Source of the DNA: Escherichia phage 212
Length of the DNA: 64,000 nt
Sequence record: PQ765507
Reading direction: 5' to 3' (one strand)
Part shown: one piece after another, positions 48,029 through 49,426 of the stretch
Position numbering within the stretch: the first letter of the stretch is position 1
Layout of the letters: each line of letters opens with the position of its first letter
Notes under the pieces: generated by a model
Database searches by the model: none
What the model was told of the DNA's origin: nothing
Seen by the model: only the letters and a program-made list of their open reading frames with translations
Made by a program: the position numbers and the translations under genes

Positions 48029-48368
48029 TCTTGCATCACATGTTTATCAATTGGCTGAATATGATATTGGTGCCAATTTATTATTAGGGATTGTCACCGC
48101 CATGCTTGGCGGCCTGGTTGGTCTGGTAATGACCACGGTTATGGCTGCAATCGAGGGAGTGATGCCTATTGAGATGGGCTTCTTTATGATAATCGCTCCG
48201 GCTGTTGTGTCTTATTTTATCCCTGTTGTGTATGATATCTGTCACACAAATGCCGTGAATGCTCCTAGTCGGAAGAGATATGCTTCAGCAATGGCTGAGT
48301 ATAATAAGTTCCTAGACAAAACAAAACGCAATGAACTTGAAACCTTTATTAAGGAATGTAAATCATGA
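48015..48368 (+). CDS. small membrane protein (117 aa)
   Basis: ATG with AAGGAGG RBS; TM-like segments; C-terminus ...ETFIKECKS. Confidence 0.5.
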   Translation: MERPSLASHVYQLAEYDIGANLLLGIVTAMLGGLVGLVMTTVMAAIEGVMPIEMGFFMIIAPAVVSYFIPVVYDICHTNAVNAPSRKRYASAMAEYNKFLDKTKRNELETFIKECKS

Positions 48369-48655
48369 ATAAAATTGAAATTGCTATCCCCAAGTATTAT
48401 GATGAGAAATCTGCAGAAAAAGCTATCTATTCTCTTCTAAATAAGACCTCTGAAATTGAAAAACACTGTGAAGAAATCGCAGATGAATATGGTATCCAAT
48501 TTGGTACCGGTGATTATGGTTCGGGCCGTACATATTATCCTGTCGGTTATGAATGCTCCCAGTGGTTTAAAGATGAAATTGAAAACAACGGCGGTGAAGT
48601 TGAAAACGGTGTCGTTACAGTTGGTGCTTGGGTCTCCTCTTCGGCAATGTGCTAA
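48365..48655 (+). CDS. tandem paralog 1 of W-x-S-S-S...C family
   Basis: C-terminus GAWVSSSAMC; central EEIADEYG motif. Confidence 0.55.
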   Translation: MNKIEIAIPKYYDEKSAEKAIYSLLNKTSEIEKHCEEIADEYGIQFGTGDYGSGRTYYPVGYECSQWFKDEIENNGGEVENGVVTVGAWVSSSAMC

Positions 48656-48664
48656 GGAAATGCT

Positions 48665-48946
48665 ATGATGAATGATTACAGTAAAAATAAAGAACTGGCT
48701 AACGCAGTAAATGACATCCATAAAGCTATTCGTCGTGCCGAGGAAATTGCAGACAAATATGAGACTCATTTTAATATATACCCTGCTCGCGGTATGGGCG
48801 GTGACTATTATTCTCCTGGCGCCCTGAAAGCTGACCTTGCCCATTGGGAAGAACATGGTCATCCTGAATGGGCTATTGTTAATACTCATGACTATACAAC
48901 TGACCTGGAAAATGGTGGTTGGGTGTCCTCCTCTTATGAATGCTAA
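48665..48946 (+). CDS. tandem paralog 2 of W-x-S-S-S...C family
   Basis: C-terminus GGWVSSSYEC; EEIADKYE motif. Confidence 0.55.
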   Translation: MMNDYSKNKELANAVNDIHKAIRRAEEIADKYETHFNIYPARGMGGDYYSPGALKADLAHWEEHGHPEWAIVNTHDYTTDLENGGWVSSSYEC

Positions 48947-48955
48947 GGAAATAAA

Positions 48956-49183
48956 ATGACTGCTAAAACTGTTAAAGAAATTGAAGACCAAATCCGTGCA
49001 CTAATCTGTGAAGGTGAACAACTGGCCGATAAAACTGGTGAATACTTTCATGTGTATGCTGACAGTCTTCAACGATATATTCCTGCGGGTTGTCCAGAAT
49101 ACGAAGAGTATGACTGGATTCGTGGTGATTACGGTATCCCAGATGGTAAAGGTTTCTGGTTTAACTCCTCTATGTCTTGCTAA
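48956..49183 (+). CDS. tandem paralog 3 of W-x-S-S-S...C family
   Basis: C-terminus GFWFNSSMSC; EQLADKTGEY motif. Confidence 0.55.
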   Translation: MTAKTVKEIEDQIRALICEGEQLADKTGEYFHVYADSLQRYIPAGCPEYEEYDWIRGDYGIPDGKGFWFNSSMSC

Positions 49184-49192
49184 GGTGATAAA

Positions 49193-49426
49193 ATGACTAC
49201 TGCTGTTGAACATGCTGAATTAGAAAAAGCCGCCCTTGAACTGGCTGCACTGTATAAGAAAGTAAAAGATATGGCTTCTGCTCAAGATTTCGGTGTTGAG
49301 CTTGATGATTATGACGGCGAAGTCCGTCTTGAAGACTGGTTGAACAGCTCTTGTTATGGTGAAGAAGCTGGTCGTACCTTCGTTGCTCGTGCCGATGGTA
49401 AAATCTGGTACCCAAGCTCATGTTAA
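49193..49426 (+). CDS. tandem paralog 4 of W-x-S-S-S...C family (C-terminally extended)
   Basis: EDWLNSSCYG...YPSSC. Confidence 0.5.
   Translation: MTTAVEHAELEKAALELAALYKKVKDMASAQDFGVELDDYDGEVRLEDWLNSSCYGEEAGRTFVARADGKIWYPSSC

Follow-up and report, generated by a model that had tools for sequence, protein, structure and literature searches.

Several described systems lie close to the genes examined here. Nucleotidyltransferases of the Pol-beta fold whose partner or substrate is a small protein form one point of comparison; among them are MNT-HEPN pairs and the enzymes CitX and MdcG, which load a nucleotide-derived prosthetic group on a serine of the small acidic carrier proteins CitD and MdcC. 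Closest in sequence are tandem genes of several T-even phages, RB69ORF136c-139c, JS98 gp126-129, VR7ORF138c-142c, and SP18 gp137-141, all of which are annotated as hypothetical proteins and belong to protein family PHROG 899. T-even phages are also able to amplify counter-defence genes in tandem, as reported for tifA against ToxIN and for SegB-driven amplification (bioRxiv 10.1101/2022.04.14.488369; PMC13096335). Here we describe an array of four PHROG 899 genes (positions 48365-49426) in a 64,000-nucleotide stretch of the genome of Escherichia phage 212 (PQ765507), which is referred to as a whole as the window. Together with a downstream gene that encodes the domains DUF7277 and DUF7275, the array makes up a two-part cassette that is widely conserved among large lytic phages whose hosts are Gram-negative.

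Four diverged paralogs in a tandem array

Phage 212 is a Gaprivervirus of the T-even type, and the 2-kilobase (kb) stretch around the array is 98.7% identical to Shigella phage SP18. The four genes are encoded head to tail on the + strand with a spacing of 9 nucleotides throughout: member 1 (48365-48655, 96 amino acids), member 2 (48665-48946, 93 amino acids), member 3 (48956-49183, 75 amino acids), and member 4 (49193-49426, 77 amino acids). The start codon of member 1 overlaps the stop codon of an e.3-like membrane-protein gene (ATGA). An earlier note, made from the sequence alone, had described the four as related tandem genes, and this was borne out by full-length matches to PHROG 899 for every member (E values of 3.7e-23, 2.7e-20, 3.5e-15, and 8.6e-10 for members 1 to 4). 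Pairwise identity among the four was 22-34%. Pairwise BLAST comparisons were significant for members 1 and 2 (7e-5) and for members 2 and 3 (5e-4) but not for members 3 and 4 (0.13), so the homology of member 4 is seen only at the profile level. A hidden Markov model (HMM) of the family picked exactly these four from all six-frame open reading frames (ORFs) of the window (E values of 3e-25 to 2e-5). All four genes are paralogs that diverged long ago, and they belong to a widespread phage family of small, acidic alpha/beta proteins.

The ratio of nonsynonymous to synonymous substitution rates (dN/dS) among orthologs from related phages was 0.10-0.18 (0.10 for member 1, 0.18 for member 2, and 0.15 for member 3), which indicates that the members are genuine translated genes under purifying selection. 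All four proteins are acidic, with isoelectric points (pI) of 4.4-5.0. The central helix motif that had been noticed in the array (EEIADEYG and its variants) proved to be family-wide, in the form of an N-terminal helix ending in E-A-E-x-[IL]-A-D-[EK]-x-G, and it was sought together with the motifs that follow it, F-x-F and the glycine-rich [YR]-G-[MS]-G-G-x-Y-Y-P. The helix and the glycine-rich motif are clear in members 1 and 2, with member 1 carrying the variant 'GDYGSGRTYYP' and member 2 representing the commonest, 'YGMGG' type (ARGMGGDYYSPG). The helix is present in member 3, where the glycine-rich motif is degenerate; member 4 has a weak helix and lacks the glycine-rich motif.

What all four members have in common is that the protein finishes in a tail of the form W-x-[SNAP]-S-[ST]-x(0-2)-C, which reads GAWVSSSAMC in member 1, GGWVSSSYEC in member 2, and GFWFNSSMSC in member 3. 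The earlier observation of a terminal cysteine in the first three proteins was correct, but its restriction to those three was not, as member 4 also ends on cysteine (IWYPSSC). Member 4 belongs to a double-tag subtype, with an internal W-L-N-S-S-C-Y-G-E-E in addition to the terminal W-Y-P-S-S-C.

Linkage of the array to a DUF7277 and DUF7275 gene

Distant members of the family were found in Myxococcus phage Mx1, the Pseudomonas Otagovirus PN09, Providencia phage PSTCR6, and the Xanthomonas jumbo phage XbC2. In each of these four phages a gene for a protein of 300-320 amino acids was located 3' of the small genes (the one in PSTCR6 is unannotated and spans the record origin), and it encodes the same protein as positions 50223-51188 of the window. 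The product of the window gene (+ strand, 321 amino acids) matches Pfam DUF7277 and DUF7275 (E values of 7.4e-74 and 2.2e-27) and belongs to PHROG 2141.

Linkage between the two families was evaluated at 93 loci, made up of 80 IMG/VR loci drawn by their DUF7275 protein, phage records, and the window; dereplication at 70% identity gave 31 lineages. Family members were accepted at an HMM E value ≤ 0.01, and a cassette was defined as a DUF7275 gene preceded, on its own strand and at a distance of up to about 3.5 kb, by at least one member. The window itself contains such a cassette, in that member 4 ends at 49426 and the DUF7275 gene starts at 50223. A member was found at 82 of the 93 loci, and at 87 when inspected divergent copies were included, as five of the eleven apparently negative loci have divergent copies immediately upstream. 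In terms of lineages, linkage was found in 23-28 of the 31, the upper figure again with divergent copies. Nearly all of the member matches (193 of 195) shared the strand of the DUF7275 gene and preceded it by no more than 3.1 kb, and at 18 loci the nearest copy was within 100 base pairs of it, down to 4 base pairs. Where the double-tag subtype occurred, it usually had the position next to the DUF7275 gene among the copies of the array.

The linkage was also apparent in the reverse direction. A degenerate DNA pattern that encodes the tail alone gave 30 matches, 27 of which were true members. At 18 of these loci the sequence extended more than 1.1 kb further downstream, and a DUF7275 gene was present on the same strand in all 18. 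When all neighboring ORFs were clustered, the small-protein family was the only co-conserved neighbor, and the next family was found in 6 of the 31 lineages. Cassettes were found in the Straboviridae, Phapecoctavirus, Otagovirus, Myxococcus phage Mx1, and two jumbo phages. The small-protein family is present in at least 390 phage records and the enzyme-like protein in at least 731. A literature search on DUF7275/DUF7277 and phrog_2141 returned no paper on the linkage of the two families.

A few loci depart from this arrangement. Two high-GC viral contigs from IMG/VR (L084 and L087) have the largest arrays seen, at about 6.3-9.5 kb, with five copies upstream and one downstream of the DUF7275 gene; no other copies departed from the upstream position. 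At four loci (L064, L065, and L068 from IMG/VR, and L040) no member was detected upstream of the DUF7275 gene; in the first three, the other strand carries a weak candidate about 7 kb away that ends in ...AWCSSSMEC. These loci may have truly lost the partner, or it may have moved elsewhere.

Conservation of the C-terminal tail

Relatives of the small proteins were identified in 224 clusters at 50% identity when 1.84 billion cluster representatives were searched exhaustively with a profile, whereas a word-indexed search yielded only 36 close relatives. Nearly all of the clusters are 70-150 amino acids in length and align through the very last residue. The tail was present in 177 of the 184 retrieved sequences and ended exactly on cysteine in 173, and 90 had no other cysteine. 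Because half of the members have a single cysteine, the terminal cysteine cannot be there for an intramolecular disulfide or a zinc finger. For the family as a whole the tail can be written W-x-S-S-x(0-2)-C-COOH, and the consensus is ...EAEEIADEHGLEFSFDVAYGMGGTYYPKG...DWESS...EGGWVSSSxxC, in which the only invariant columns are W, S, S, and C. The family is acidic (median pI 4.5), and some members carry internal W-x-S-S repeats or a whole second tag. Internal duplication of the tag would be expected of a motif for recognition or modification more than of a core structural element.

Scans of the four proteins against Pfam, NCBIfam, and PADLOC gave zero matches, a sequence-profile search of the PDB with the small proteins returned noise only, and a literature search on the family and on the ORF names of its relatives returned no relevant paper. 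The impression that this was an undescribed family was therefore accurate: its sole catalogue entry is PHROG 899, 'unknown function', and it has no Pfam, NCBIfam, or solved-structure match. Likewise, no homolog of a characterized T4 housekeeping protein was found. Structure prediction, which had been suggested as a check, gave a confident AlphaFold model of member 1 (predicted local distance difference test (pLDDT) 90.3, predicted template modeling score (pTM) 0.76), consisting of a long helix, a hairpin, a second helix, and a three-stranded sheet. A fold search with this model returned no similar solved structure, and its matches in BFVD were uncharacterized members of the same family. The predicted fold has no known relative.

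The spacing of serine and cysteine in the tail (S-x-x-C or S-S-C) resembles that of lanthionine rings, and the small genes always have an uncharacterized enzyme gene beside them, which raises the question of whether the small proteins are precursors of ribosomally synthesized and post-translationally modified peptides. The tail would then be dehydrated and cyclized to a lanthionine-type ring, or cross-linked in another way, with release of a peptide. We consider this very improbable. The whole domain, including the tail, is predicted to be folded (pLDDT 90), the body is variable while the would-be core is conserved, which is the reverse of typical precursors, and the examined neighborhoods contained no genes for LanB/C/M, radical-SAM, or YcaO enzymes, proteases, or exporters.

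The partner protein

In the N-terminal DUF7277 domain of the partner, the residues G6-S7, D25-x-D27, and E69 were invariant across 36 diverse homologs. The C-terminal DUF7275 domain is all-helical and has invariant histidine, aspartate, glutamate, and lysine residues (in SHRY, YDHDSIHEA, EE..VLALER, and KVCTSITSG). In the AlphaFold model of the partner, a confident one (pLDDT 89.6, pTM 0.85), the G-S pair is located between strand 1 and a helix, the D-x-D motif is at the start of strand 2, and E69 is on a later strand. A G-S pair, a D-x-D motif, and a carboxylate on a later strand are the layout of Pol-beta-type nucleotidyltransferases (hG[GS], then [DE]h[DE]h, then a third carboxylate), with which the predicted order of strands and helices is compatible, and two GenBank records label homologs as 'putative nucleotidyltransferase'. 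Judging from the conserved residues and the model, the partner probably belongs with the Pol-beta-type nucleotidyltransferases and has a second domain that is helical and rich in histidine and aspartate. The spacer between G-S and D-x-D is 17 residues, versus the usual 9-13 in nucleotidyltransferases. A Pfam scan of the partner found nothing beyond the two DUFs and no nucleotidyltransferase match, and an hhalign comparison with AadA1 was not significant.

Other identities for the partner were considered. A role in tRNA repair, which tRNA, RNA ligase, and Pnk genes close to the locus in some phages had suggested, was rejected as weak, as a tRNA gene was found within 8 kb in only 7 of the 31 lineages. 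No claim is made for a HEPN or HD identity of DUF7275, for which there were a faint PADLOC match to CARF_HEPN (E value 0.013) and the histidine and aspartate motifs. In the jumbo phages XbC2 and PHA46 and in Streptomyces phage BillNye (loci L008, L011, and L013), the DUF7275 gene is surrounded by genes for RNA ligase, polynucleotide kinase, and DNA ligase. These surroundings hint at a context of nucleic-acid end processing in the two jumbo phages and the Streptomyces phage.

Possible function of the cassette

The small proteins and the enzyme-like protein may act together, as the products of one cassette expressed in the early or middle period. The invariant tail would be the handle by which a single enzyme recognizes every paralog, and the enzyme would most likely modify this tail covalently, on Ser-Ser or on the cysteine. 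The divergent bodies would give each paralog a different cellular target, probably one in the host. This reading, of a tag recognized and probably covalently modified by one enzyme on proteins with different targets, is the one we prefer, as plausible but tentative, at somewhat short of an even chance. A more specific version is that the cassette is a new kind of phage protein-tagging system, in which the enzyme derivatizes the tag, by nucleotidylylation or with a nucleotide-derived group, on one to six acidic effectors and so arms each of them against a different host target or defence; in this form the proposal is doubtful.

The linkage data, judged from gene order and sequence, seem to fit equally well a second possibility, namely non-covalent binding of the small proteins to the enzyme, whether as antitoxin-like inhibitors or as interchangeable specificity subunits that would guide one enzyme to several targets. 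If they were inhibitors, the thiolate and carboxylate of the terminal cysteine would perhaps sit on a metal site of the enzyme, and the invariant histidine, aspartate, and glutamate residues of the second domain could bind a metal. The association at 82-87 of the 93 loci is as expected for such binding partners, and the position of the small genes ahead of the enzyme gene, with gaps as short as 4 base pairs, suggests translational coupling and stoichiometric assembly. The presence of several conserved, non-redundant paralogs for each single enzyme would also suit specificity subunits or inhibitors, although pairs of the toxin-antitoxin kind usually have one cognate partner rather than one to six. 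We regard non-covalent binding as possible but rather unlikely.

Several results weigh against a tail that is recognized and modified by the partner. In the model of member 1 the tail is within the fold, with the tryptophan in the last strand and the Ser-Ser pair capping a short terminal helix that ends in the cysteine, so that conservation of the tail could be purely structural. Linkage can also come from co-transfer without direct interaction, and in the window about 800 nucleotides, with three small ORFs and a 183-nucleotide gap, separate the array from the enzyme gene. No member could be detected with the shorter DUF7275 homologs of actinophages or in at least two Gram-negative lineages. 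As for the enzyme itself, hhalign of the partner against an ANT(3'') profile gave a probability of 0.65%, and a PDB sequence search with the partner returned no match.

If the tail is a site of recognition or modification by the enzyme, phage effectors would be matured here in a way that is new, and the tag might be carried over to other proteins as a labeling tool. Were it no enzyme site, the family would still be a new fold with an invariant terminal cysteine. Both halves of the cassette are 'hypothetical proteins', yet they are found in hundreds of sequenced large lytic phages, and the hosts of many of the carrier phages are of interest in phage therapy, among them E. coli, Klebsiella, Enterobacter, Acinetobacter, Aeromonas, and Pseudomonas. 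As a strictly conserved pair of genes in which a short tag is invariant, the cassette offers a well-defined and easily mutated handle on unknown phage biology.

Gene junctions, copy number, and expression

A repeat search and alignment identified a 19-nucleotide direct repeat, TGCTAAGG(A/T)(A/G)AT..(A)ATGA, at the three junctions within the array (48650-48668, 48941-48959, and 49178-49196, + strand), in agreement with the earlier note, which had described the junctions as conserved at the nucleotide level. Each copy consists of the TGC cysteine codon, a TAA stop codon overlapping the Shine-Dalgarno sequence AAGGA, a spacer, and ATG, so that a Shine-Dalgarno sequence is present at each junction. 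The predicted RNA folds of the junctions were not more stable than those of shuffled sequence (z-scores of +0.65, -0.28, and +1.82), and an RNA hairpin hiding the Shine-Dalgarno sequence was rejected on this basis. As there is no significant RNA structure, the nucleotide conservation of the junctions is explained by the coding of the tail together with translation-initiation signals.

Copy number was compared among relatives, as had been recommended, and ranged from one to six across the sampled loci. One Mosigvirus has three copies, and SP18 and VR7 have five, versus the four in the window, with an extra gene of 65 amino acids between members 2 and 3. Alignment to the SP18 and VR7 junctions located the point of difference at a 16-nucleotide block, TGGGTGTCCTCCTCTT (48920-48935, + strand), which encodes W-V-S-S-S. 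To the left of this block the window matches the end of member 2 from SP18 and VR7, and to the right it matches the end of the 65-amino-acid gene and then the start of member 3. This chimeric junction between members 2 and 3 indicates that the fifth copy was lost through a recombinational deletion inside the tail-coding block. Member 2 ends in -YEC rather than -SEC because its last codons derive from the lost paralog. Recombination in the repeats that encode the tag and the ribosome-binding site adds and removes copies.

The paralog types themselves are widespread. Member-1-like, 'YGMGG'-like, and double-tag types recur in other genera and in Phapecoctavirus, and the double-tag subtype was also found in Shewanella phage Thanatos-1 and in metagenomic phages. 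A reading of the array as recent arms-race diversification of one phage's gene did not hold, as the types are old, cross genera, and are each under purifying selection. At the syntenic site in T4, e.3 directly abuts e.2, and both the array and the partner gene are absent. T4 e.2 was considered as a hidden member and rejected, as its translation has neither the tail nor any other family motif.

The 19-nucleotide repeat and the identical 16-nucleotide block, the latter of which mediated recombination, might suggest that the conserved motif is a nucleic-acid element of the junctions, such as an RNA hairpin or a recombination site, or that the ORFs are untranslated. As the primary explanation this is effectively refuted, and it is the least probable of the readings considered here. 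In addition to the folding results, the dN/dS values of 0.10-0.18, and the full-length profile matches, the serine codons of the tail vary from copy to copy (TCC/TCT/TCG versus AGC/TCT/TCA) and also vary across the family, including in high-GC phages. Because the serine codons differ among copies, the tail is conserved as protein and not merely as DNA.

No match to the late promoter TATAAATA was found on the + strand from 42067 to 60908; this promoter is abundant elsewhere, on the strand of the late genes. The absence of a late promoter near the array fits pre-late expression and is in keeping with the placement of the array in an early region by the earlier note. It could be argued, essentially as in the earlier note, that the small proteins are stand-alone effectors of host takeover or anti-defence, for instance acidic decoys or mimics of DNA or RNA. 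They would share a mobile block with the DUF7275 gene but make no direct functional contact with its product. In favor of this are their small size and acidity (pI 4.4-5.0), the location of their genes in a pre-late region rich in accessory genes, the shifts in copy number through recombination at the junctions, and the tandem amplification of counter-defence genes in T-even phages. Ocr, ArdA, and T4 Arn are likewise small, acidic, early phage proteins, but neither sequence nor fold similarity of the small proteins to these three was found, nor any structural similarity to another known inhibitor. Hitch-hiking is also a poor fit to the near-obligate two-way linkage, with fixed order and strand and no other shared neighbor, and the orthologs are under purifying rather than diversifying selection. 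Effectors that act independently of the partner are therefore unlikely in our estimation.

Neighboring genes

The ATG of an ORF for a basic protein of 75 amino acids (49420-49647, + strand; PHROG 7065, unknown function) overlaps the stop codon of member 4 (ATGTTAA). With a dN/dS of 0.025 it is the most strongly conserved small gene of the stretch, and comparison of lineages showed that it is not co-conserved with the cassette outside Gaprivervirus-related genera. Beyond the partner gene, an HNH-endonuclease-like ORF (51185-51835, + strand; PHROG 374, E value 4e-59) overlaps the stop codon of the DUF7275 gene. This ORF is present in VR7 and absent at the same position in SP18, and it is probably a mobile homing-endonuclease insertion.

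Directly upstream of the array are e.4-like (47669-48028) and e.3-like (48015-48368) genes, both on the + strand and both predicted to encode membrane proteins. These two genes appear to be paralogous to each other, and the e.4-like ORF matches PHROG 2604 and PHROG 2330. Further upstream, a GC-rich hairpin (AGGGGGC-TTT-GCCCCCT, 47103-47119) directly follows an e.6-like gene and precedes the next ORF, and a similar hairpin is found at 45614-45633. The two may act as terminators, or they may be stem-loops of the sort found at the borders of mobile early-gene cassettes in T4-type phages. Three tRNA genes (Met-CAT, Asn-GTT, and Arg-TCT; 43718-43951, + strand) are located about 4.4 kb upstream of the array, and the same trio is present in SP18.

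Comparison with known systems

T4-type internal head proteins, the products of the neighboring ip genes, carry an N-terminal capsid-targeting sequence resembling MKTYQEFIAE, which is cleaved after a glutamate. The N-termini of the four array proteins (MNKIEIAIPK, MMNDYSKNKE, MTAKTVKEIE, and MTTAVEHAEL) are unlike this sequence, and an identity as internal head proteins was rejected. The genes listed at the outset from RB69, JS98, VR7, and SP18 share with the window array the site between e.3 and e.2 in T-even phages other than T4, as well as the tandem layout and the tail.

The array has features in common with the tifA and SegB amplifications, namely tandem small accessory genes in T-even genomes and a copy number that changes by recombination between short repeats. 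However, the amplified repeats are reported to be recent, near-identical, and laboratory-selected, whereas the copies of the array have only 25-32% identity and are ancient, linked to a partner, and each under purifying selection.

The CitX/MdcG and MNT-HEPN systems provide a possible working analogy. The likeness lies in an enzyme with the GS, DxD, and glutamate signature encoded beside small acidic proteins with an invariant Ser-Ser. In contrast to those systems, the small proteins described here have no detectable relation, in sequence or fold, to proteins of the acyl-carrier-protein type or to HEPN proteins. The cassette is also found in phages only, has one to six partners per enzyme, and is distinguished by a C-terminal tag that ends in cysteine. 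On these sequence comparisons, the cassette is rated as probably lying outside the known kinds of system.

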